A stretch of DNA of 64,000 nt from Planctomycetota bacterium (lineage in GTDB: Bacteria > Planctomycetota > UBA8742 > UBA2392). The notes beneath the pieces were generated by a model. It worked only from the letters and a program-made list of their open reading frames with translations, ran no database searches and was not told the origin of the DNA. Shown here one piece after another: positions 3,078 through 27,908 of this stretch. Position 1 is the first letter of the stretch. Each line of letters starts with the position of its first letter. Made by a program: the position numbers and the translations under genes. The stretch is taken from positions 2,051,261-2,115,260 of the forward strand of contig JACKID010000001.1 of assembly GCA_020638675.1 (NCBI GenBank). Reading direction: 5' to 3'.

Positions 3078-4061
3078 TTACTCCGCCTTGATGGATCGGG
3101 TCATCAGGCGGGTAACGGCTGTGCGTGGGTCGGCGTGGTCGTATATGACGTTGCAGACTTCTTCGCAGATGGGCATCTCTACACCCTTCTGGCGGGCGAG
3201 TTCGCGCAGGGCCTTGGCCGTGTTGTAGCCTTCCACCACCATTTCCATTGACGCGATGATCGCTTCAGGCTTCTCGCCGCCGCCGATGCGTCGCCCGAAG
3301 TTCAGGTTGCGCCCGTGGCTTGATGCACAGGTCGTGTACAAGTCGCCGATGCCGCTGAGCCCGCTAAACGTCCGCTCTTCAGCGCCGATTGCAACGCCGA
3401 GCCGGACGATCTCGGCCAAACCGCGCGCGATCAACGCCGCCTTGGCGTTGTCGCCCAGCTTGAGCCCGTCCACGATGCCCGCCGCGATAGCGACTACATT
3501 CTTCGCAGCGCCGGAAAGCTCCACACCCGCAAGGTCGGTGCTGTAGTAGACGCGGAAGGTGGGGGTGCTCACCAGCTCCGCCAATGCCTGCGCGCGCGTC
3601 TCATCGCCCGCGCTGACAACCACGGCGGGCATTCCGCGCGCGACTTCCTCGGCGTGGCTCGGCCCCGACAGGCACAACAGGTGCTTCGAGCTGGTGACCT
3701 CGCCCAGGATCTGCGTTGGAAACTTGACCGTCTCCTGCTCAATCCCCTTGCTCAGGCTGACGATCGGAAGTTCAGGCGGCAGGCGGTCAGCCAGTTGCGT
3801 GAACTCGCTGCGAATGAAACGGGTCGGCACGGCGCTGATGCACCAGTCGAAGCGCTCGAGGCCGTCCAACTCGTTGGTTGCCTCGAGGCCTTCCGGGAAG
3901 GAGATATCCGGCAGGAAGATGCGGTTCACGCGTGTCTTCGCCAGTTCGGCCGCGTAATCCGGCAGGCGCTCATACAACGTCACGCGGTTGCCCGCACCCG
4001 CGAGCAGCACGCCGAACGCGGTCCCCCAACTGCCTGCACCGATGATCAGCACTTCAGCCAT
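3078..4061 (-). CDS. gpsA: NAD(P)H-dependent glycerol-3-phosphate dehydrogenase
   Basis: 327 aa; GAGSWGTA Rossmann motif and the conserved GpsA core (LSGPSHAEEV, NVVAIAAG, GRNLNFGRRIG). Confidence 0.9.
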   Translation of the reverse strand: MAEVLIIGAGSWGTAFGVLLAGAGNRVTLYERLPDYAAELAKTRVNRIFLPDISFPEGLEATNELDGLERFDWCISAVPTRFIRSEFTQLADRLPPELPIVSLSKGIEQETVKFPTQILGEVTSSKHLLCLSGPSHAEEVARGMPAVVVSAGDETRAQALAELVSTPTFRVYYSTDLAGVELSGAAKNVVAIAAGIVDGLKLGDNAKAALIARGLAEIVRLGVAIGAEERTFSGLSGIGDLYTTCASSHGRNLNFGRRIGGGEKPEAIIASMEMVVEGYNTAKALRELARQKGVEMPICEEVCNVIYDHADPRTAVTRLMTRSIKAE

Positions 4062-4719
4062 TGCTTGCCTCAGGCGTTTTGCGGCCGATACGCGGCTCGC
4101 TGCCGTTCATGATTCTACGGATGTTTGAGCGATGTTTGACCAGCACGGCGAGCGACATCACGCAGATCAGTATAAAGCGTCGGTCGTATGGCTCGGTGAA
4201 TGTCTGCGCGCCCAGCCAGGCATAGTAGAAGGCCGGCATGCTAAGCCCGGCCACAATGCTCGAGATGCTCACCATGCGAGTCACCAGCAGCGTCAGCCCG
4301 AACGCGCCGAGCGCACAAAGGGCAGGCAGCGGTACATGAATCTCGGGCAACGTTGTCACGACCAATACTACGCCGAGCCCGGTCGCCACGCCCTTGCCGC
4401 CTTTGAACTTGAGATAGATCGAGTACAGGTGGCCCATCAGGGCGCCGATCGCCGCGAACAGCACGAGGTCCGTGCCGGCGCGCGGCGCAAGCCAGAGTCC
4501 AAGCAGGCAGGGGCCGGCGCCCTTGAGTGCGTCAAGCAACAGCACGACGGGAAACCACTTCCAGCCGATGACCCGCGCCGCGTTGGTCGCGCCGATGTTG
4601 CGGCTGCCGTGCTGGCGAATGTCCACGCCCTTCAGCAGGTAGCCCGCAAGCAGCCCGTACGGAATGCTGCCCACCATGTAGGAGACGAGCAGCGTTCCGA
4701 TGATCCAGGCCCAGGTCAT
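4054..4719 (-). CDS. plsY: Glycerol-3-phosphate acyltransferase PlsY
   Basis: 221 aa membrane protein with PlsY motifs (GSIPYG, SRNIGATNAAR, FKGGKGVATG). Overlaps the gpsA start by 8 nt (classic plsY-gpsA arrangement). Confidence 0.9.
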   Translation of the reverse strand: MTWAWIIGTLLVSYMVGSIPYGLLAGYLLKGVDIRQHGSRNIGATNAARVIGWKWFPVVLLLDALKGAGPCLLGLWLAPRAGTDLVLFAAIGALMGHLYSIYLKFKGGKGVATGLGVVLVVTTLPEIHVPLPALCALGAFGLTLLVTRMVSISSIVAGLSMPAFYYAWLGAQTFTEPYDRRFILICVMSLAVLVKHRSNIRRIMNGSEPRIGRKTPEASNG

Positions 4720-6557
4720 GCCTTCGCCGGGGTGAGTGTGCGCGCGTAGCGGGTCAGCTCGCTGATCATTTCGTAGCGGTTCATCGGCGTGATCATGTAG
4801 AAGCCCTGCACCTCGGGCGCGATCTCTTGCATCAACTCTTTGCTGATCTTTACGCCTTCCGCACGCCCGCTTTCGCCGCGCTTGCCTTTCATGCGCTCGC
4901 GAATGTCCTCGGGCACGTCGATGCCGGGAACCTCGTGGTGAAGGAAATCGGCGTTGCGTTCACTGACCAGTGGCATGATGCCAAGAATCAACGGAACGCC
5001 GAGCGGCCTCGCGGACTCGGTCACGCGTCGGGCCGTGGCGATATCAAACACCGGCTGCGTCATGATGAACCTGGCGCCCGCCTGCACCTTCCGCTGAAAG
5101 CGTTTGACCTCGTTCTCCAGCCGCAATGACGCACAGTTGAACGCGCCGCCGACGAAGAAGTTGGTGGGGGAATTGCCGTCACGCCCCGTCGCGAATTCGC
5201 CCTTGTTGAAGCGCGAGATCATCTCGATCAGCTTGTGGCTGGCCATGTCGAACACGCCGCTGCTGCCCTTGTAGGCCTGCGTGGCGACCGGGTCGCCGGT
5301 CACGGCGAGGATGTTGGTAATGCCCATCGCGTAAGCACCCAGCAGGTGCGACTGGGTGCCGATCAGGCTGCGGTCACGGCAAGCGATGTGAAGCACGATG
5401 CGCGCATCGACCTGCTGCATGAGCAGCCCGGCAAACGCGAGGTTGCTCATGCGCATGATGCTGAGCGCGTTGTCTGCAATGGTGATGGCGTCGGCGCCGG
5501 CCTTCACGACTTCGGCGGCGCCTTTCAGTTCGCCCGTTGCATCGAATCCGCGCGGAGGGTCCACTTCGGCAATCACGATCCTGCGGGTCTTCAGATCCCC
5601 TTCGAGCGTCGGCTGCAATTTCAGAGGCTCGGAGGGCTTGGCCTTCTGTGCGGGCTCAGCGGCTACGCGCAGGTGACGCATCGACGGCTTGCGCGCGCTG
5701 ACCTGGCCCTTGAGTTTGCGGATGTCCTCAGGCGTCGTGCCGCAGCAGCCGCCGATCAGGTTGGCGCCAAGGTCGGCCAGGCGACGCGCGCTGCGGGCGA
5801 AGTAGTCGCTGCTTTCGATGTAGATCGGCCGTCCGTGATCGTCGAAATCCGCAAGACCGCGGTTGGGGTAGATGCTGATCGGCTTCTCCGTCAGCTCGAC
5901 CAGACGCTTGCAGACTTCAATGGCCGCGCTCTCGCCGCCGCCGCAGTTGGCGCCGATGACGTCGACCGGCTGCCTGTCCAGCTCGCGGACCATGCGCTCG
6001 GGTGAAATGCCCGTGGTGGTCGTGCCTGCAAGTGTGAACGCCATCTGCGCGATCAGCGGCGTCCCGGGGGCGACGGCGCGCACAGCCGCAATGGCAAACA
6101 GCAGCTCGGAGAGGTCGGGAAAGGTCTCCAGCAGGAGGGCGTCGACGCCGCCCTCAACCAGTCCCGTGACTTCTTCCTTGAAGCACTCGCGGCGCTCGTC
6201 GTCGGTGAGCTTGTTACTGGAGCGGAACAGCGGGCCGATAGCTCCCACGACATAGGCGCGGTCGCCGGCAACCTGCCTGGCCAGCTCCGCGCCGGCCTTG
6301 CAGACGTCATGGCTTGTGACATTGGCTTCGGCCGCTGCGAGTGCCATGCGGTCGGCGCCGAAAGTGTTGGTCTCGATTACGTCTGAACCTGCGTCGAGGT
6401 ATTCCTGGTGCGCGGCAATCACGAAGTTCGGCTTGGCGAGGTTCAGCACTGGCCCGATGCCGCCGCCCGCCACGAGCCCGCGACTTGCCAGCAAGGTGCC
6501 GTACGCCCCGTCACCAACGAGGACCTTCTTCCTGAGTGCTTCGAGAAACGGCTCCAT
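4716..6557 (-). CDS. Bifunctional homocysteine S-methyltransferase domain / 5,10-methylenetetrahydrofolate reductase (YitJ-like MetH-N/MetF fusion)
   Basis: 613 aa. The N-terminal half has Hcy-binding (S-methyltransferase) motifs including the zinc-ligand cysteines (ANCGG, GGCCGTT). The C-terminal half is MetF-like (MTHFR). Confidence 0.8.
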   Translation of the reverse strand: MEPFLEALRKKVLVGDGAYGTLLASRGLVAGGGIGPVLNLAKPNFVIAAHQEYLDAGSDVIETNTFGADRMALAAAEANVTSHDVCKAGAELARQVAGDRAYVVGAIGPLFRSSNKLTDDERRECFKEEVTGLVEGGVDALLLETFPDLSELLFAIAAVRAVAPGTPLIAQMAFTLAGTTTTGISPERMVRELDRQPVDVIGANCGGGESAAIEVCKRLVELTEKPISIYPNRGLADFDDHGRPIYIESSDYFARSARRLADLGANLIGGCCGTTPEDIRKLKGQVSARKPSMRHLRVAAEPAQKAKPSEPLKLQPTLEGDLKTRRIVIAEVDPPRGFDATGELKGAAEVVKAGADAITIADNALSIMRMSNLAFAGLLMQQVDARIVLHIACRDRSLIGTQSHLLGAYAMGITNILAVTGDPVATQAYKGSSGVFDMASHKLIEMISRFNKGEFATGRDGNSPTNFFVGGAFNCASLRLENEVKRFQRKVQAGARFIMTQPVFDIATARRVTESARPLGVPLILGIMPLVSERNADFLHHEVPGIDVPEDIRERMKGKRGESGRAEGVKISKELMQEIAPEVQGFYMITPMNRYEMISELTRYARTLTPAKA

Positions 6558-6597: not shown

Positions 6598-7740
6598 TCA
6601 AGCTTCCAAGCGCACGTAGCGCTTGCCGGGCAGGGCCTTGGCGAGGCGCTTCATTTCGAGGGTGAGCAGGCCGCTGCTGATCTGCGCGGCGGGCAGGCTG
6701 GTTTTGCCCATCAGCTCATCGACGGTCAGGCCGTCGCTGGGCATCAGCACTTTCCACAACGCGGCCTCAGTGGGGGACATGCCTTGTGGCGTGGCGCTTG
6801 CCCGCTTCTCCGGCGCCTTTTCCTCGGGCAGCAACTTGAGCATCTCGAGGCCTTCGTAAACGTGCTCCGGCTCAGCGACGAGGTGCGCGCCTTCGCGGAT
6901 CAGGTCGTGGGGGCCCTGGCTGAGGTCGCTGTCGACTTTGCCCGGCAGTGCGAAGACCTCGCGGCCTTGCTCGGCGGCGAGGCGCGCGGTGATCAATGAG
7001 CCGGACTTGCGCGTGGCCTCGACCACGAGAACGCCGAGGCTAAGCCCGGAGATGATCCGGTTGCGCTGCGGGAAGTTGCGCGCGCGCCCGGGCGTGTGCA
7101 GGGGGAACTCGCTTACGACCGCGCCATTCTCGGCAATCTCCAGCGCGAAGCGGTCGTTCTCGGGCGGATAGATGTCCAACAGTCCGCTTCCCACCACGGC
7201 GATTGTTCGGCCGCCGGCATCCAGCGCGGCGCGATGCGCGGCTGTGTCGATCCCCCGAGCCAGGCCGCTCACGACGGTGACCCGGCGAATGGCAAAGTCG
7301 CGGGCGAAGCGCGCGGCCTGCGCGGTGCCGTAATAGCTGGCGCTGCGGCCACCGACGATGGCGAGCGACAGGTCGTCGTGTGAAGTGATTTCGCCACGGA
7401 CGTAGAGCAGCGGCGGCGGGTCATCGATGCGCTTGAGGATCTGCGGGTATGCCTTGTCCTCGAGCTCAAGCAGCTTGACTCCGTGCTTCTCGCACTCTTC
7501 CAGCTCGCGGAGGTGGTCGCCCTTGCGGATGACCTCCGCCAGCGCCTCCGCCCCTTGCTTGTTTACCTTCGGGACCTTGTTGAGTTCGCTCTTTGGGGCC
7601 GCGACGATGCCGCTCGCGCTGCCGAATCGCTTCAGCAGGTTCGCGACACCCAGCGGCGTGAACTTCTGCGCCACCGCCAGCGCGACTTTCGCCTCGATCT
7701 CACGCATGTGACCGGCCCAGCAGGGTTGCCGCGAGTGCAT
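6598..7740 (-). CDS. dprA: DNA processing protein DprA (Smf)
   Basis: 380 aa; DprA Rossmann-like core (LAIVGGRSASYYG, VVSGLARGIDTAAHRAAL, TIAVVGSGLDIYPPEN, FPQRNRIISGLS) plus a C-terminal winged-helix-like tail. Start uncertain (Met1 or Met12). Confidence 0.85.
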   Translation of the reverse strand: MHSRQPCWAGHMREIEAKVALAVAQKFTPLGVANLLKRFGSASGIVAAPKSELNKVPKVNKQGAEALAEVIRKGDHLRELEECEKHGVKLLELEDKAYPQILKRIDDPPPLLYVRGEITSHDDLSLAIVGGRSASYYGTAQAARFARDFAIRRVTVVSGLARGIDTAAHRAALDAGGRTIAVVGSGLLDIYPPENDRFALEIAENGAVVSEFPLHTPGRARNFPQRNRIISGLSLGVLVVEATRKSGSLITARLAAEQGREVFALPGKVDSDLSQGPHDLIREGAHLVAEPEHVYEGLEMLKLLPEEKAPEKRASATPQGMSPTEAALWKVLMPSDGLTVDELMGKTSLPAAQISSGLLTLEMKRLAKALPGKRYVRLEA

Positions 7741-8785
7741 CGTCCAGCCTGCAGGGAAGGGCCCCAGCTTCGCCCAACTCTGAAAGCACTACGAATCGCA
7801 GCACGTGGCCGGTGCGCTTCTTGTCGGCCTCCATGATCTCCAGCGCGCGCGCCGCTTCCAGGTTCTCCGGGACAACGGTCGAGAGCCCGAAGCGTCCGAA
7901 CAAGGCAACCACCCGAGTGGCGACTTCCGGGTCCAGCTTCGCACGCTCAACCGACAGGCGCAAAGCCGCGGCGGTGCCGATGGCAACAGCTTCGCCATGC
8001 AGATAGCGCTCGGGAAAGGCAGTCTCGATCACGTGGGCAAGCGTGTGCCCGAGATTGAGTGTCGCGCGGCGCCCGGTGACTTCCACCTCGTCCTCCGCGA
8101 CGACCTGCGCCTTGAAACGAACGCAAGCCTCGATGACCCGTTGCAGTGAATCCACCTCGCGGGCCGCCAGCTTGTCCGCCGACGCTTCGAGCAACGACAT
8201 CAACTCGTCGCCGCTGAGGGCGGCTGTCTTGATGATCTCTGCGATGGCGCTGACATACTCGCGCTCGGGCAGCGTCTTCAAGAAGTGAAGATCGCAAAAG
8301 ACGGCCGCGGGCTGGTGGAACGCGCCGATCAGGTTCTTGCCCGCCGCGTGGTTGATCGCGGTCTTGCCGCCTACGCTTGAATCGACCATCGCCAGCAGGC
8401 TCGTCGGCACCTGCACGTACCGAATTCCGCGCAGCAGCGTGGCCGCGAGATAGCCCGCGAGGTCGCCAACCATCCCGCCGCCCAGCGCAAACACGAGCGA
8501 GTGTCGATCCACCTGGCGCGCGGCGAACACTTCATCGTAAAGTCGCGCGAGTTGTTCAATGCCCTTGCTGTTCTCACCGGCAGGCACGGTGAAGACTTCG
8601 TTCGCCACCACTGCGTTCTGTACTACGTCGGCGTGAAGCGGCCCCACGTTGGTGTCCGTGACAATGAAGCTGCTCGTCGGCTTCTCGGCTTCTGCGAATT
8701 CACGCATTTCGCCAAGCAGCCGCTCGCCGATCACGACGTCGTAGCTGCGCTCGCCAAGGGAAACTGGTACGCGGGTAACTTCCAT
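7700..8785 (-). CDS. aroB: 3-dehydroquinate synthase
   Basis: 361 aa; AroB motifs (GGGMVGDLAGYLAATLLRG, VQVPTSLLAMVDSSVGGKT, NLGHTLAH). Confidence 0.9.
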   Translation of the reverse strand: MEVTRVPVSLGERSYDVVIGERLLGEMREFAEAEKPTSSFIVTDTNVGPLHADVVQNAVVANEVFTVPAGENSKGIEQLARLYDEVFAARQVDRHSLVFALGGGMVGDLAGYLAATLLRGIRYVQVPTSLLAMVDSSVGGKTAINHAAGKNLIGAFHQPAAVFCDLHFLKTLPEREYVSAIAEIIKTAALSGDELMSLLEASADKLAAREVDSLQRVIEACVRFKAQVVAEDEVEVTGRRATLNLGHTLAHVIETAFPERYLHGEAVAIGTAAALRLSVERAKLDPEVATRVVALFGRFGLSTVVPENLEAARALEIMEADKKRTGHVLRFVVLSELGEAGALPCRLDDALAATLLGRSHA

Positions 8786-8816: not shown

Positions 8817-10727
8817 CTATTCCTTGGCGTGCGGGTCGTCCGGCTCGGGCTCGGACGGCTGTTCCGGCTGGGTTGGCTCAGCGGGAGCTTCAGGCTCGCC
8901 GCCTTTGCCGCCCGGCAGCGGCTTCAGCTTGAGTCCGCCCTGCTTCTTGATTCGTCCGCGCGACAGCTCGAGGGTGCTGGCCTCGAAGCGCGCGCGCTCT
9001 CGGCGCTCGCTGAGGATGAACCACGTCAATACCGCGAGCAGCAGCACCACACCGCCGATTCCGGCCACCGCGTACAGCCAGGCGCCTTCTTCACTGTCTT
9101 CGGCGATGCCTTTCATCTTTCGCACGATGATCAACGGCCGAACGCTTGAGCTGGTGCTGTTGCTCTCGAACACGTTGCGATAGTAGCGCGCGTCGATGTC
9201 GATCAGCGCGCGGGGCTCCAGCCCGGTGGGCGGCTCGATCATGTCACACAGGTAGCGCTTGGGTGTTTCCAGGTCGCCGGTGTCGTGCAGGACGAGCGCA
9301 CGGAACACGCGCCGCAGCCCGCTGATGTTCGGTGGCAGTATCACCGGCGCGTAGTCGTCGCCGATCATGCCGACGACGTGAATCCCCTGGCCGCGGTAGC
9401 GCGGGCCGGTTTCTTCACCCGCAAGGTCGAAGTAGCCGATCTCGGGCACGATCTCAACCTGGTCGTCCGGGTCGTTGGCCTTGGCGAGCATCGCGTAGTA
9501 CGCCGCCTCGGACTCAAGGTAGATCGGGTCTTCGCGCATCGCATCGCGCACCTGCTGAAGCAGTTCATCCGTAAGCTCGTAGGGCGACCTTTGGCTGAGT
9601 GCCAGGTCAGCCGTGAGCAGCAGCGGAAGATGGTCCTGCGTGACGACCTTCTTGGCCTGTGTGCTGTAGGGCTTGACCTCGCGGCTGTAGATCCAGCGGC
9701 GCAGGAACGCGCCTGTAAACTTGACCATCACCTTCTCGGTGACCAGCTTGTCTTCGTGCGAGACGGATCCCTTGTCGTTCACGTAGGGCTTGAGCGCATC
9801 CGGAATCGTCAAGGCCTGGAACTCGACGGTGCGCTGCTCAATCTTGTGTTCCTTGCGCAGCATTCCCGGGCCGAGCAACGCCACGACGCCCTCGTAGTAG
9901 CTTTCCACCTTTGTGCCGTCCTGCAGCACGATCGCCTTGTCGGGCCTGATTTCGTAAAGGTCGAACAGGCGCCCCTCGGCCGCGAAGCCCCGCCCGCGAT
10001 ACACTTCGCATACATCCTGCGACTTGCCGAAATACCAGCCGGACTGCTCGACGCGCTTCTGGTATTCGGCGTACGCCGCGCTGCCCGGTGCGGGCAGCTT
10101 CTTCAGAATCTGCAGTGCCAGCACCTCGTTGGTAGGCGCCTGGCGTCCGCGGTAGGCGTCGAACTCGTTCATCGACTTTTCGCGCGAGGCATCGGTGAAC
10201 TGCACGAAATCGAGCAGGTTCTGCGTTTCGTCCGCCAGCCTGAACACCGGCTCAAGCGTCAGCTTCTCGGCGATGGCCAGTTCCCGCTCCGCTTCCTGAC
10301 GCGCGAGGTCACGCTGATCGGTGCCGCCGCTTGACGGGAATGGGTCCGGCGGCGGCAGCTCTTCGCCGCCGTCGAACGGCAACCCGACGTCGTTCGACTT
10401 CGGCTTGTTGGCCTTCGTCGGGTCGGAGTCCGTCTCGAAGTTGCCGGGCAACTGGTTGATCGGATGCTCCGTCTGCCACTGTTCGCGCTTCTGCTTGAAC
10501 AACGCCCGAATCTGCTCGGTCGTCAGCAGCGGGTCGAAGTTGGTGCGGATGCTTTCCGGCTCCCAGTCCCAGGACTCGCGGTCGTCCTGCCACGAGTACG
10601 TCAGCAGCATGAAAATGATGCCGACCAGGCTGATCGTCATGACGACCAGTCCCGCCAGCTTCACGAACATCGCCGAAGCGGCGGGGGCGGGGCCGTGGTC
10701 AACTGGCTTGATGGAAATCTTCGCCAA
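8817..10727 (-). CDS. Hypothetical membrane protein: two TM helices (N- and C-terminal) flanking a large ~500-aa domain, Pro/Glu-rich C-terminal tail
   Basis: 636 aa; TM at approximately residues 20-43 and 555-580; no recognisable domain. First gene of a tight four-gene minus-strand cluster. Confidence 0.6.
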   Translation of the reverse strand: MAKISIKPVDHGPAPAASAMFVKLAGLVVMTISLVGIIFMLLTYSWQDDRESWDWEPESIRTNFDPLLTTEQIRALFKQKREQWQTEHPINQLPGNFETDSDPTKANKPKSNDVGLPFDGGEELPPPDPFPSSGGTDQRDLARQEAERELAIAEKLTLEPVFRLADETQNLLDFVQFTDASREKSMNEFDAYRGRQAPTNEVLALQILKKLPAPGSAAYAEYQKRVEQSGWYFGKSQDVCEVYRGRGFAAEGRLFDLYEIRPDKAIVLQDGTKVESYYEGVVALLGPGMLRKEHKIEQRTVEFQALTIPDALKPYVNDKGSVSHEDKLVTEKVMVKFTGAFLRRWIYSREVKPYSTQAKKVVTQDHLPLLLTADLALSQRSPYELTDELLQQVRDAMREDPIYLESEAAYYAMLAKANDPDDQVEIVPEIGYFDLAGEETGPRYRGQGIHVVGMIGDDYAPVILPPNISGLRRVFRALVLHDTGDLETPKRYLCDMIEPPTGLEPRALIDIDARYYRNVFESNSTSSSVRPLIIVRKMKGIAEDSEEGAWLYAVAGIGGVVLLLAVLTWFILSERRERARFEASTLELSRGRIKKQGGLKLKPLPGGKGGEPEAPAEPTQPEQPSEPEPDDPHAKE

Positions 10728-10791
10728 TGGCGCACCTCTTAACCATAGGAACGGGAAATTCCGCTCCCGGTTCAGCTGCGGCTATTGGAGC

Positions 10792-11616
10792 CTATTCCGG
10801 CTTCGTTGTGAACTGGAAGATTCTCGCACCCTTGGGGTGCTTGAGCGTAATGGCCACAACGATCTCGTCGCCGTCGCGCAAGGGCACGGGCTCATGCACC
10901 GGCAGGCCATTGAGGTACGTCCCGTTGGTCGAACGCATGTCCTCGATCATGAACGCGTCGCCATCCTTTCGGATCTGGAAGTGACGCTTGCTGATCGTCG
11001 GGATCTGGAAAACCAGGTCGCTGGGCGGCTCACGCCCGATCATCATGGTCTTGCGAATCTCGTGGCGCGTGCCGCTCTCGACGTCGACCAGGTAGCCGAC
11101 TTCGGCCTTCGAGGCCTTGTCCACGGGGCGCTGCGCGCGCGTCGGCTTCGATTGTTTCGCGGGCTCTGGTGAGAGGGCCGGGGCTTCGGGCGACAGCGCG
11201 GTGGGGGCCATCTCGGTCCTGTCCGACTGAATCGGCTTGGCGGCCTTCACCGCCTCGTACTTCGAGCCCTTGATGTTGGCCTTCACCTTGGCCGCGTCCA
11301 CCCTGCCGTTGCCTGCCAGCGGCTGCACAACGTCGACCTCGACCATGCGGTAGAGGTTGGCGTGGCGGAAGTAGCGGTCGACGGACGGCGGAATGCGGAT
11401 CAGCACCTTCTTCTCGGCCGCTTCGCCGCCGATCAGCTTGATGGCAATGCTTCTGAAGGCGTCCTCGGAAATCTCCAGCGTGCCGGTGATGTCCATCTCG
11501 ACGCGGTCGTACGGGAGCTGCAGCAACTGCGGGAAATAGTCGAACACCGCCGAGATGAATTCTTCCTCACTCTCGGCGGCGATCACAAGTCGATTCCAGC
11601 GCAGCGTTGCAGACAT
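10792..11616 (-). CDS. FHA domain-containing protein (C-terminal FHA, N-terminal unknown domain)
   Basis: 274 aa; C-terminal FHA signature (IGREPPSDLVFQIPTISKRHFQIRKDGDAFMIEDMRSTNGTYLNGLPV); the N-terminal ~170 aa are unassigned. Confidence 0.7.
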   Translation of the reverse strand: MSATLRWNRLVIAAESEEEFISAVFDYFPQLLQLPYDRVEMDITGTLEISEDAFRSIAIKLIGGEAAEKKVLIRIPPSVDRYFRHANLYRMVEVDVVQPLAGNGRVDAAKVKANIKGSKYEAVKAAKPIQSDRTEMAPTALSPEAPALSPEPAKQSKPTRAQRPVDKASKAEVGYLVDVESGTRHEIRKTMMIGREPPSDLVFQIPTISKRHFQIRKDGDAFMIEDMRSTNGTYLNGLPVHEPVPLRDGDEIVVAITLKHPKGARIFQFTTKPE

Positions 11617-11619
11617 GGC

Positions 11620-11889
11620 CTAGTCGTCTTCTCCGTCGACGAACCGCAGCGCCTCGTTCTGGAGCAGCGTAAGCTGCGAGTCGGAGTTGCCGGTCGCCTC
11701 GATAATTCCGCGCATCTGCTGTTTGCGTTCGTCACCCTCAATCAGCGTATCAATCAACAGCCGGTACAGGTGGGTTGTGCTGATCGGAATTGCATGGATG
11801 AGGTCGTCAAACTCGTCATCCGAGAACTGGAAGTTCCCGTGATCCGATTGAAGGGTAGCGGAGCCGTCGTCGTTCTTGATGATCTTCAT
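11620..11889 (-). CDS. Small acidic hypothetical protein
   Basis: 89 aa ORF sitting 3 nt after the FHA gene start and 24 nt before the next gene, same strand; operon position supports it being real. No domain seen. Confidence 0.45.
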   Translation of the reverse strand: MKIIKNDDGSATLQSDHGNFQFSDDEFDDLIHAIPISTTHLYRLLIDTLIEGDERKQQMRGIIEATGNSDSQLTLLQNEALRFVDGEDD

Positions 11890-11913
11890 TGAGGTGTGTT
11901 TCTCCGTTACGGT

Positions 11914-13110
11914 TTAGCGCTTCTGGGTGATGCGGCAGGAAAGGCCCGCATCCTTGAACCGGTCGCGCACGCCCTGGGCCTCGTCTTCCGAGACGCCCTT
12001 CACGACCGGCACAATCATCTTGCCGGCCAGAGCAATTGCAGAGTTCATGTCGATGCCCTGAATGTCCGCAATGATCTCGGCCGCGGCCTGCTTCTTGTCT
12101 GCGCCCTTGGGCGGCGACAGGAACACCGTGAAGTTGCCGCCACCTTCGGCCGCCTTGCGACCTGAGCCGCCGGCCGCCGGGGCTACCGCACCGGTGTTCG
12201 GCTTCTTGATCTGTTTCGTGACTGGCTTCTTGGCCGCGCCCGGGAGCTTCGGGGCGGGCTTGCCGGCCGGTGCCGGCGCGGCCTTGTTGAGTTTGGAAGT
12301 CTCGCGCTTCTTTTTCTCGAGGTTCGGGTCTTTGTAGGTGCTGGCCTTGCCGGTCCAGACCGGAAGAGTGTCTTCCGGGCCCGGCTTGAACTTGGCCTTC
12401 GGGTTTCCGTCAGCGTCCAATTCGACCTCCTCGTCATCAAGCGAAAGGTTTTCCAGCGAAAGTCCCGCGTCATCATCTTCGACCGACAGCGACGGCTGTG
12501 AAGCCTTGCGAGTCGGCGGCAGCATGGTCATGGCGTCCGCGTTGAAACCCGGCTCGTCATCTGCGGGAATATCCAGTGCATCTACGGGGATGTCGACCGA
12601 GTCATCGGACACATCCATCACGTCGCCCTCAAGCCCTAGGCCGCCCGCGTCGTCGCCGGGGATATCCACGCCGACGGACACGTTTTCGTCACCTTCCAGG
12701 TCGCTGAGGTCAAGGTCCAGGTCGTCGGACTCAGTTACATCCTGCGTCCCGACAGTCTCTTCCATCTGGACGCTGCCGTCGTCGTCCACATCGTCGAACG
12801 GGATGTCAACCGCCATCGGCTCACCGCCGAAGGGCTCAACGGCCGCGAGGCTCTCGACCTTCTGGGCCGGCATCGGCTCATGGGCGCTCTCGTTCTCGGC
12901 CGCAAATTCGTCGGTGAGATCGACCGGCTCAGGATCGTCATGGATGGGCGGGACGCCGCCGAAGATGGTAGGAGCGCCCATCGGCACGGGTGACGAAACT
13001 GCTACGCCGTCCGGGGTTAAACTCATGTCAAGGCGCAGGGGCTGACCGGGCACCTCAAGTCTTACTGATATCGAATCGCCGGGGCGAAGAACTACTTCTT
13101 GTGTGGCCAT
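11914..13110 (-). CDS. Polyelectrolyte protein: short N-terminal domain, long poly-acidic Asp/Glu-rich region, Lys/Pro-rich basic region and a C-terminal ribosomal L7/L12 C-terminal-domain-like fold
   Basis: 398 aa. The C-terminal 70 aa (FTVFLSPPKGADKKQAAAEIIADIQGIDMNSAIALAGKMIVPVVKGVSEDEAQGVRDRFKDAGLSCRI) match the L7/L12 CTD pattern F.V.L...K...IK.VR..TGLGLKEAK.LV...P..VKEGVSKEEAE.IK.KLEEAGA.VE. Confidence 0.6.
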   Translation of the reverse strand: MATQEVVLRPGDSISVRLEVPGQPLRLDMSLTPDGVAVSSPVPMGAPTIFGGVPPIHDDPEPVDLTDEFAAENESAHEPMPAQKVESLAAVEPFGGEPMAVDIPFDDVDDDGSVQMEETVGTQDVTESDDLDLDLSDLEGDENVSVGVDIPGDDAGGLGLEGDVMDVSDDSVDIPVDALDIPADDEPGFNADAMTMLPPTRKASQPSLSVEDDDAGLSLENLSLDDEEVELDADGNPKAKFKPGPEDTLPVWTGKASTYKDPNLEKKKRETSKLNKAAPAPAGKPAPKLPGAAKKPVTKQIKKPNTGAVAPAAGGSGRKAAEGGGNFTVFLSPPKGADKKQAAAEIIADIQGIDMNSAIALAGKMIVPVVKGVSEDEAQGVRDRFKDAGLSCRITQKR

Positions 13111-13326
13111 AGGTCGTTTTACACCTGTTCAGGCGTTGCCCGTCTTTCGCGGCTGCAATCCTTTGGGGTCAAGGAATTGTCGCGGTCAGCGGCAACTTGT
13201 GTCAAGCCCTTTCACAGAGCATCCCTGCGCACCGAGAATCACATCCTCACAGCATCCACGCAACATGCAAGCCGCCACCGGACACCCGTTGCCAAAGCCG
13301 CGGCGCAGTGGTTGCATACCGCCGAC

Positions 13327-14016
13327 ATGGTTGCCACGAACCCATCCGCAACGCCGGCCCTGCAAATCGAGGACCTGGTCAAGACCTATCCGGGCGGGAT
13401 TGAGGCCGTCAAGGGCGTCAGCCTAACCGTTCAGCAAGGCGAGATGCTTGCGATCATGGGCAAGTCCGGCAGCGGCAAGTCCACGCTCATGAGCCTGATC
13501 GGCACCCTCGACAAGCCGGACAGCGGCCGGATTCTGATCCATGGGCAGGACATCGCGCACATCAAGAACCTTGCCAGGTTCCGGCGCGAGGAAATCGGGT
13601 TCGTGTTCCAGTTGCACTATCTGCTCCCGCACCTGACGCTGCTCGACAACGTCGCGCTGCCCCTGTTGGGCAAGTCCGGTGCGCAAGACCTTGCCCGCAA
13701 GGCGCTTGAGCAGGTGGGGCTGTCGCACCGCGTGGGTCACGTGCCGGCCAAGGTCAGCGGCGGCGAACGCCAGCGTGCGGCCATCGCCCGCGCGATTGTG
13801 AATCGCCCGCGCGTTCTGCTTGCGGACGAGCCTACCGGCAACGTGGACAGCGAAAGCGAAGCCGTGCTGCTCGATCTGTTCCAGAGCCTGCAGGATGAAT
13901 TGGGGATGACGCTGATTGTAGTGACACACGAGCGCGGCGTGGCCGACCGGGCCGACCGAATCGTGCACTACAAAGACGGTCTGATTGAGCGGATCGAGAC
14001 CAGGGAATCAGTTTGA
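13327..14016 (+). CDS. ABC transporter ATP-binding protein (LolD/MacB-type ATPase)
   Basis: Walker A GKSGSGKST, ABC signature LSGGERQRAAIARA, Walker B VLLADEPTGNVD. Start placed at Met77 of ORF 13099..14016; the upstream 76 residues look like non-coding read-through. Confidence 0.85.
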   Translation: MVATNPSATPALQIEDLVKTYPGGIEAVKGVSLTVQQGEMLAIMGKSGSGKSTLMSLIGTLDKPDSGRILIHGQDIAHIKNLARFRREEIGFVFQLHYLLPHLTLLDNVALPLLGKSGAQDLARKALEQVGLSHRVGHVPAKVSGGERQRAAIARAIVNRPRVLLADEPTGNVDSESEAVLLDLFQSLQDELGMTLIVVTHERGVADRADRIVHYKDGLIERIETRESV

Positions 14017-14471
14017 GACTCGCAGCAGTCATATTGATGTTGGCACTCGGATTGGCGTGCGCCGGCTGCCTTGATTCGGGCAACATCCCCGGTGTCACCA
14101 CCGACCCCGAGGCCGCCGCCAAGGCCGCATTCCCGGAATTACCGCCCGCAGCCGAGGCCACGCAACTGAAAGATCGCGGGAGCAAGATGTTCAACGGGCT
14201 CGGCTGCCAGAGTTGTCATTCCACGACACACGAGCGCAACGGACTGATGGGACCGCCGCTGGGCGGAGTCAGCGACAGGGTGCTGGAACGCAAGGACCAT
14301 GACCCGTTGAAAGCGCGGCGCTGGCTGGTGATGCACATCAAGGACCCTTTGATGTACCCGAGCCCCTTCGCCGATCAAGCTGACTACAAGGGCACCCATA
14401 TGCCGCCCAACCCGCGCGTCACGGACGAAGACCTGCGCGCACTGGTTGAGTTTCTCTGGGCCCTGCGCTAA
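14013..14471 (+). CDS. Cytochrome c family lipoprotein (mono-heme)
   Basis: 152 aa; lipoprotein signal ending LACAGC; single CxxCH heme-binding motif (CQSCH). ATGA overlap with the upstream ABC ATPase. Confidence 0.7.
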   Translation: MRLAAVILMLALGLACAGCLDSGNIPGVTTDPEAAAKAAFPELPPAAEATQLKDRGSKMFNGLGCQSCHSTTHERNGLMGPPLGGVSDRVLERKDHDPLKARRWLVMHIKDPLMYPSPFADQADYKGTHMPPNPRVTDEDLRALVEFLWALR

Positions 14472-27831: not shown

Positions 27832-27908
27832 GGACGTGTAGCTCAATTGGTTAGAGCATCTGCTTTACACGCAGAGGGTCGGGGGTTCGAGTCCCTCCAC
27901 GTCCACCA
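27832..27908 (+). tRNA. tRNA-Val (anticodon TAC)
   Basis: Manual cloverleaf: acceptor GGACGTG/CACGTCC, D-arm GCTC...GAGC, anticodon stem TCTGC/GCAGA with loop TTTACAC (anticodon TAC), T-arm GGGGG TTCGAGT CCCTC, discriminator A, encoded CCA. Confidence 0.85.

Follow-up and report, generated by a model that had tools for sequence, protein, structure and literature searches.

On the minus strand of a 64,000-nt stretch of a Planctomycetota bacterium genome (contig JACKID010000001.1; the whole stretch is referred to here as the window), four genes, designated A, B, C and D, are packed between aroB and a divergently oriented ABC ATPase gene. Do these four genes form one functional module? A sequence-only reading had taken them as a coherent, undescribed module for membrane-associated signalling or translation modulation and had found no assignable function for any of them. 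Our analysis favours, with moderate confidence, a different answer, namely that two units lie side by side: the trio D-C-B, which would act as a phosphothreonine-dependent adaptor or partner switch, and A-aroB(-dprA). The function of the four genes is still unassigned, but domains can now be assigned on predicted structures, a STAS fold in B and OB folds in A. The genes are as follows.

11914-13110, minus strand: gene D, an open reading frame (ORF) for a mostly disordered, charge-segregated scaffold of 398 amino acids (aa) with an isoelectric point (pI) of 4.2
11620-11889, minus strand: gene C, an ORF for an acidic protein of 89 aa
10792-11616, minus strand: gene B, an ORF for a STAS-linker-FHA protein of 274 aa
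8817-10727, minus strand: gene A, an ORF for a protein of 636 aa with a TTG start
7700-8785, minus strand: aroB, encoding 3-dehydroquinate synthase and following A after a gap of 31 nt
6598-7740, minus strand: dprA, which shares 41 nt with aroB when the listed dprA start is taken

All four minus-strand ORFs were confirmed at these positions as real, conserved genes. Fifty-seven full-length database homologues were found for A (41-100% identity), 133 for B and 61 for D, the last all in Planctomycetota metagenome-assembled genomes (MAGs), and C was recovered at every related locus among the 36 that were fetched. All homologues carrying a name came from MAGs with the label Planctomycetota bacterium or Planctomycetes bacterium, and window proteins were 100% identical to H6839_08865 and H6839_08880. 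The spacers measured 24 nt between D and C, 3 nt between C and B and 64 nt between B and A; the first two agreed with the sequence-only reading, which had given the third as 65 nt. That reading had also taken aroB as the boundary of the set at A, but the co-directional array runs on across a gap of 31 nt, smaller than the gap between B and A.

The gene order was compared across 22 GTDB species and further assemblies of the lineage. A syntenic block of about 13 kb, hisD-hisG-hisZ-cytc-ABC on one side and D-C-B-A-aroB-dprA-MTHFR on the other (MTHFR, methylenetetrahydrofolate reductase), was found lineage-wide, down to 41% identity in A. Since the whole block is syntenic, adjacency of the four genes within the lineage is indistinguishable from general synteny. 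D and B flanked C in all 36 C-containing loci. The MAG SJ201 separated the genes: A (IT463_04710) was located on contig JADLBZ010000093, between BamA and aroB-dprA-MTHFR, and D (IT463_13170), C and B lay together on contig JADLBZ010000275. There the trio was followed on the same strand by genes for a 705-aa TPR protein and an ECF sigma factor, which overlap by 11 nt (L027 5861-8585). Given the STAS domain of B, a possible sigma-factor link at this locus is of interest. The 705-aa protein was considered as a second A and rejected as a TPR protein (hhalign probability 0.1%).

Searches with an A profile against 1.84 billion representative proteins returned only 30 matches, among them a distant full-length group (647-721 aa) with E-values from 1e-36 to 1e-54, and a relative of 442 aa. 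In five of the six loci examined, the distant homologue was immediately upstream of aroB: P0241, P0243, P0245 and P0248 overlapped aroB by 4-14 nt, and P0259 was 38 nt upstream. At one of these distant loci (L032), dprA also followed A-aroB. No FHA, C or D genes were detected near the distant A homologues at the six loci. The A family is thus older than D-C-B and tied to aroB across distant Planctomycetota. The trio D-C-B (13110 to 10792) is cytoplasmic and occurs in a single lineage of uncultured Planctomycetota; neither the D homologue search nor the metagenome scan with C found these proteins outside it. The idea of a coherent undescribed module therefore holds for D, C and B, which stayed together in 36 of 36 loci and moved together in SJ201, but not for A, and the co-conservation of all four genes elsewhere did not bear out, A being apart in SJ201 and its family occurring without D-C-B at the six distant loci.

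What the trio might do was approached through the domains of B.

Residues 1-100 (11317-11616, minus strand): STAS-fold domain with the order beta-beta-alpha-beta-alpha-beta-alpha-beta
Residues 101-185 (11062-11316, minus strand): variable disordered linker in which a D-x-T134-E-x-A-P motif is kept in orthologues
Residues 186-274 (10795-11061, minus strand): FHA domain, with PF00498 and invariant phosphothreonine-binding residues

The FHA domain, as first noticed, was confirmed by Pfam PF00498 (E 9.7e-20, 71.2 bits against a cutoff of 20.7, residues 192-253). The phosphothreonine-binding residues G194, R195, S209, H212 and N231 were invariant in 41 orthologues and paralogues. Its closest solved relatives, FhaA (Rv0020c) of Mycobacterium tuberculosis, EmbR, GarA, Rad53 FHA1 and OdhI, are all proven phosphothreonine binders. 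By type, the FHA domain of B is canonical and a bona fide phosphothreonine reader, with binding predicted from these residues. At the level of sequence, B belonged to the FHA family only: the equivalogs for OdhI/GarA (NF041660, 44.9 against a cutoff of 200) and FhaB/FipA (NF049868, 56.6 against a cutoff of 125) gave matches restricted to the FHA domain.

The N-terminal part of B had been described as a novel domain of about 170 aa; according to the structural model, it instead consists of a STAS fold of about 100 aa, assigned at the level of fold only, and the variable disordered linker. STAS is the partner-binding module of SpoIIAA/RsbV/MlaB-type switches, and the phosphorylation site of SpoIIAA/RsbV is at the N-terminus of helix 2. 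At the same place in B is a S/T50-E51 dyad, the register of which relative to S58 of SpoIIAA is ambiguous by one residue. Position 50 was S or T in 18/18 orthologues and mostly Gly in paralogues, and almost every sequence had Glu or Asp at position 51, so that the orthologues have S/T50-E51 and the paralogues mostly Gly-Glu. In the linker, T134 was present in 16/18 orthologues. The linker varies in length, and in L022 a longer one gives a B protein of 343 aa. A family of stand-alone B paralogues (36-44% identity, about 245 aa) has the same STAS-FHA architecture, with one member per lineage genome, including the source genome of the window (P0150); examples are found at L026 4590-5333, L033 7001-7753 and L034 7001-7726. 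Their linker carries its own conserved motif, DETHPP...TKIQTRA. The neighbourhoods of the paralogues vary. The neighbouring proteins were tested for relationship to A, C or D and showed no resemblance.

Compared with STAS partner-switch proteins (SpoIIAA, RsbV, RsbS/RsbR; PF01740), B does not show sequence-level membership and differs by its long tether to an FHA domain, and literature searches for such a fusion of STAS and FHA found no description of it. Near B at the window locus there was neither an anti-sigma kinase nor a PP2C phosphatase nor a sigma factor. In sequence, the FHA domain of B was closest to those of GarA/OdhI, FhaA Rv0020c, FhaB/FipA and EmbR. Like GarA/OdhI, B is small and soluble and has a flexible segment with a conserved Thr (T134) before the FHA domain; given this layout, a cis phospho-switch in B is conceivable. 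The actinobacterial FHA regulators lack the STAS domain of B and have no counterparts of D and C. B thus seems to work like a STAS partner-switch protein and an actinobacterial FHA regulator in one. It would join in one polypeptide the two main bacterial logics of phospho-protein recognition, Hanks kinase/FHA and STAS partner switching, and two STAS-FHA paralogues occur per genome in an uncultured Planctomycetota lineage that is common in activated sludge.

D offered candidate threonines for the FHA domain of B to read. The regions and motifs of D, with motif counts taken from an alignment of 25 homologues, were as follows.

Residues 1-43 (12982-13110, minus strand): conserved N-terminal region, MATQEVxLRPGDSISVxLExPGQxxRLDLSLTPxG
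Residues 44-245 (12376-12981, minus strand): acidic disordered region, net charge -51, with the islands SLAAVEPF..QAVDIPFDD and DDLDLDL
Residues 189-198 (12517-12546, minus strand): GFxADxxTMxPP, with invariant F189...T195-M196-x-P198
Residues 246-324 (12139-12375, minus strand): basic Lys/Pro/Ala-rich linker, net charge +11
Residues 249-275 (12286-12366, minus strand): invariant motif LPVWTGKAxxYxDP...KKxxT271-x-K-[L/I]
Residues 325-398 (11917-12138, minus strand): highly conserved C-terminal domain, weakly similar to the C-terminal domain (CTD) of bL12 (L7/L12)

T195, M196 and P198 were found in 25/25 D sequences. T271 was likewise present in 25/25, with L at the +3 position in 14 and I in 11. 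Further invariant residues were L249, P250, W252, A256, Y259, D261 and P262. The pattern pT-x-x-[I/L] is a classic FHA ligand, which makes T271 the best candidate ligand of the B FHA domain. The NCBI model of D (H6839_08880, P0178, 355 aa) begins at Met44 and drops residues 1-43. Because these residues are kept even by homologues with an identity of about 40%, the 398-aa form is preferred, and the ORF from the ATG at 13110 is judged the better model of D. The correct D start codon and the STAS domain of B are both corrections to the existing annotation.

The charge segregation noted earlier in D was confirmed by the net charges given above. The end domain had a mean column identity of 82%, and it was 78-86% identical where A was only 41-45% identical. 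Its likeness to L7/L12 held as a set of weak matches, below family cutoffs. TIGR00855 matched D with E 2.9e-5 and 24.5 bits against a cutoff of 84.4, covering model positions 39-122 only. A profile of the end domain matched seven distinct bL12/bL12m sequences in the PDB (E 0.003-0.03, 65/76 positions), and hhalign against E. coli L7/L12 gave E 3.8e-4 and a probability of 36%. PF00542 had zero matches in D at E<=1 (Pfam). The N-terminal dimerisation/L10-binding domain of bL12 is absent from D, residues 1-324 being a small beta region followed by disordered acidic and basic sequence. K70 and R73 (E. coli numbering, helix 4) are reportedly, according to Helgstrand et al. 2007, contacts of bL12 with translation factors. 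When the HMMER alignment was read by hand, in its own register or in an alternative one, these positions corresponded in D to A344/E345 and I347/A348, none of them basic; of the factor-contact positions, K65 alone has a basic counterpart in D. The bL12-CTD likeness of the end domain is weakly but consistently indicated by the profile matches. Because the tests of thresholds, N-terminal domain and factor-contact residues all failed, D is judged not to be a bL12 but to carry a bL12-CTD-like domain. Residues 325-398 appear to align with the full length of the bL12 CTD, with the same secondary-structure pattern, and they hang on an Ala/Pro/Lys-rich tether. D differs from bL12 in lacking the L10-binding domain, in not keeping the factor contacts, and in its disordered scaffold of 320 residues with acidic and basic parts. 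A long disordered scaffold of this kind, with segregated charges, invariant linear motifs and a head resembling the bL12 CTD, is rare in bacteria.

C was confirmed as acidic (pI 4.28), and its core EFDDL.HA.P.[SN]TT..YRLL.DTL was invariant. No relatives of C were found in Pfam, NCBIfam or PADLOC, and nothing significant in a PDB profile search; the best PDB match, the C-terminal region of KsgA (E 0.05), was dismissed as chance. A scan of metagenomes with the C profile gave 14 loci only, all from the same lineage, with no wider distribution. C is most likely a small acidic helical partner in the trio.

Taken together, these features suggest how the trio would most likely operate. A Ser/Thr kinase encoded elsewhere would phosphorylate an invariant threonine, the best candidate being T271 of D in the context K-K-x-x-T-x-K-[L/I], and the FHA domain of B would dock on the phosphorylated residue. 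Alternatively, the threonine read could be T195 of D, or T134 in the linker of B itself in a GarA-like cis switch. Docking would bring the STAS domain and the end domain of D to a target, or release them from it. The trio would thereby act as an adaptor or partner switch that phosphorylation gates, with C as a small partner. A with aroB (and dprA) would form a separate, older unit of an envelope-protein family. In this picture the genes, their domain and fold assignments, their conservation and their neighbourhoods are observations, and phosphorylation, the threonine that is read, the partners and the ligand of A are inferred.

The features of A are given below.

Residues 16-47 (10587-10682, minus strand): first transmembrane segment, Kyte-Doolittle maximum 2.69, model helix 17-45
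Residues 247-372 (9612-9989, minus strand): first periplasmic OB fold, with invariant R244, F248, G252, R253 and D256
Residues 448-540 (9108-9386, minus strand): second beta-rich, OB-like domain, with invariant PPNISGxRR and RYYRN
Residues 547-575 (9003-9089, minus strand): second transmembrane segment, from hydropathy and the model
Residues 597-605 (8913-8939, minus strand): lineage-specific cytoplasmic tail motif GGLKLKPLP

Hydropathy and composition confirmed the two hydrophobic segments and the Pro/Glu-rich tail that had been noticed in A. From these segments, A appears to be an envelope protein of the inner membrane with both termini inside and a periplasmic region of about 500 aa. An AlphaFold model (pLDDT 73.6) supports its placement as an OB-fold protein, at the level of fold only. 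Extra helical domains and a further invariant motif of its own, TGPxYRGQG, were also present. A and its distant homologues had zero Pfam/NCBIfam matches, and an A profile found nothing in the PDB at E<=1. The PPNISG.R and YYR motifs were retained in the distant homologues. In the tail, G597, K600, L601, K602, P603 and L604 were invariant in 33 aligned lineage sequences, and the GGLKLKPLP motif was missing in the distant homologues P0241-P0250, which are without D-C-B. The cytoplasmic segments of A hold no invariant Thr.

The periplasmic OB folds of A, with their invariant Arg/Tyr motifs, probably bind an anionic ligand. Periplasmic OB proteins (DUF3299 PA4066, YgiW/BOF, CcmE) and tandem-OB single-stranded DNA-binding proteins resemble A in fold, with zero sequence similarity, and A differs from them in its length of 636 aa, its two transmembrane segments, its additional helical domains and motifs that it alone has. 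Envelope genes linked with aroB are known from pilMNOPQ-aroK-aroB and from aroK-aroB-damX of E. coli, and A is likewise an envelope gene kept by aroB over the long term without an obvious biochemical link. PilQ and DamX are unrelated to A, and here A precedes aroB, the stop codon of the one often overlapping the start codon of the other. It would be a long shot to see in this tandem-OB family, next to aroB-dprA, a periplasmic DNA receptor for natural transformation. The comparison defines a Planctomycetota-wide family of two-transmembrane tandem-OB envelope proteins just upstream of aroB, which offers a lead to an envelope function. At L028 1-2637 and L049 2718-6821, a gene for a very large TPR-repeat Ser/Thr kinase was located about 1-5 kb from a distant A-like gene. 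Planctomycetota encode many large Ser/Thr kinases, and this proximity may be coincidence.

Several results weigh against the two-unit explanation and the switch proposed for the trio. STAS was not recovered in B by sequence: there were zero Pfam/NCBIfam matches at E<=1, STAS proteins were not among the matches of the B N-terminal profile in the PDB, and hhalign of B against SpoIIAA stayed below significance, its match being confined to the beta4-alpha3-beta5 region, with E 0.0034 and a probability of 9%. It is because sequence methods do not detect STAS that the assignment is kept at fold level. The STAS-FHA paralogue stands without C or D in the same genomes, and therefore a STAS-FHA protein does not strictly need either. 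Motifs of Hanks kinases, PP2C and HATPase were absent in a crude motif scan confined to the 64-kb window, and the neighbours included neither a kinase or phosphatase nor a partner of the anti-sigma type. As for A, the distant homologue P0247 does not adjoin aroB, A came after B in 29 of the 30 loci with room for it, and the invariant GGLKLKPLP tail is specific to the lineage that has D-C-B. The last two results leave room for a real connection of A to D-C-B.

Such a connection would be explained if all four proteins formed one membrane-associated complex, in which A anchors D-C-B, for example through its tail, and couples signals from the periplasm to a phospho-dependent output. The regular succession of B and A and the tail motif, invariant in 33/33 lineage sequences and missing from distant A without D-C-B, both fit this idea, and a pattern scan found no terminator-like site between D and aroB, the B-A interval included. 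However, adjacency says little within a block of about 13 kb that is wholly syntenic, and SJ201 carries A and D-C-B on separate contigs with different neighbours. Also, the A family predates D-C-B and is linked to aroB, its cytoplasmic segments offer the FHA domain no invariant Thr, and the 64-nt spacer between B and A is the widest of the set. A single complex is therefore considered possible but doubtful. At the opposite extreme, the four could be lineage-specific 'hypothetical' genes that share tight packing but no functional relation. This would agree with the rigid gene order over the whole region in the lineage and with the fact that no function, partner or kinase was identified, but D, C and B remained together after relocation, their spacers are 24 and 3 nt, and the end domain of D, the core motif of C and B are under strong purifying selection. 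We give this explanation scarcely any weight.

Two further explanations take up individual domains of the trio. The end domain of D could mimic the CTD of the bL12 stalk and engage translational GTPases or the ribosome, with B adding phospho-dependence. Residues 325-398 appear similar over the whole bL12 CTD with a matching beta-alpha-alpha-beta-alpha-beta pattern, the domain is strikingly conserved compared with A (78-86% against 41-45%), the Ala/Pro/Lys-rich tether is flexible as in bL12, and Joint Genome Institute (JGI) pipelines name several D homologues 'ribosomal protein L7/L12'. On the other hand, the scores stayed below family thresholds (24.5 against 84.4 bits, hhalign 36%, no PF00542), the L10-binding domain is lacking, and the counterparts of K70 and R73 appear non-basic in the manual alignment. 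The fold of the bL12 CTD is the ClpS-like fold of SCOP, for which other adaptor roles are also known. The translation-modulating role first proposed drew on the weak bL12-CTD similarity, and control of translation by the trio now seems improbable. Its specific form, in which the end domain is a free-standing ribosomal-stalk mimic whose availability is gated by Ser/Thr phosphorylation read by B, is regarded as very improbable; if true, it would be a new phosphorylation-controlled tuning of translation in Planctomycetota. The remaining proposal is that the STAS domain of B regulates the divergent ABC ATPase (13327-14016) as MlaB regulates MlaF. The likeness consists of the STAS fold and the ATPase gene, which lies divergently beside D at every lineage locus but SJ201. 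But that adjacency lies within a fully syntenic block and was lost on relocation, since the SJ201 trio has no adjoining ABC ATPase; the STAS-FHA paralogues are not beside ABC genes; the ATPase has no permease gene alongside, and neither Mla permease nor MCE genes are present here; and MlaB has no FHA domain. Regulation of this type is thus very unlikely. The trio as a phosphothreonine-dependent switch, with A in a separate unit, remained the explanation that we favour. An anti-phage defence role was also considered and rejected, as PADLOC defence-system models gave zero matches for A, B, C and D.

D, C, B and A are the head of a nine-gene co-directional array that reaches to about position 3078. 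A promoter-like site was found by consensus scan about 65 nt 5' of the D start codon, within the divergent intergenic region, as a pattern match only.

13176-13205, minus strand: promoter-like site, TTGACA-18-GACAAT, 10/12 matches

Past dprA, the array continues in the same direction with a fused S-methyltransferase/MTHFR gene, plsY and gpsA. The fused gene (4716-6557, minus strand) encodes a protein of 613 aa, the orthologues of which have homocysteine S-methyltransferase (PF02574) and MTHFR (PF02219) domains, and its product is a fused enzyme of one-carbon metabolism inside the same array. On the other side of D, the ABC ATPase gene (13327-14016, plus strand) overlaps the gene directly behind it, which encodes a small cytochrome c (14013-14471, plus strand), and the pair is conserved across the lineage. 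The cytochrome c has an N-terminus resembling a lipoprotein signal (LACAGC), and in some species a protein of about 198 aa is encoded between the two. Elsewhere in the window, a tRNA at 27832-27905 on the plus strand was the sole Rfam match at the gathering threshold across the 64 kb. Ten large ORFs of the window were typed as AcrB, HlyD, LRR, S1, PHP, AMP-binding, OYE and similar.

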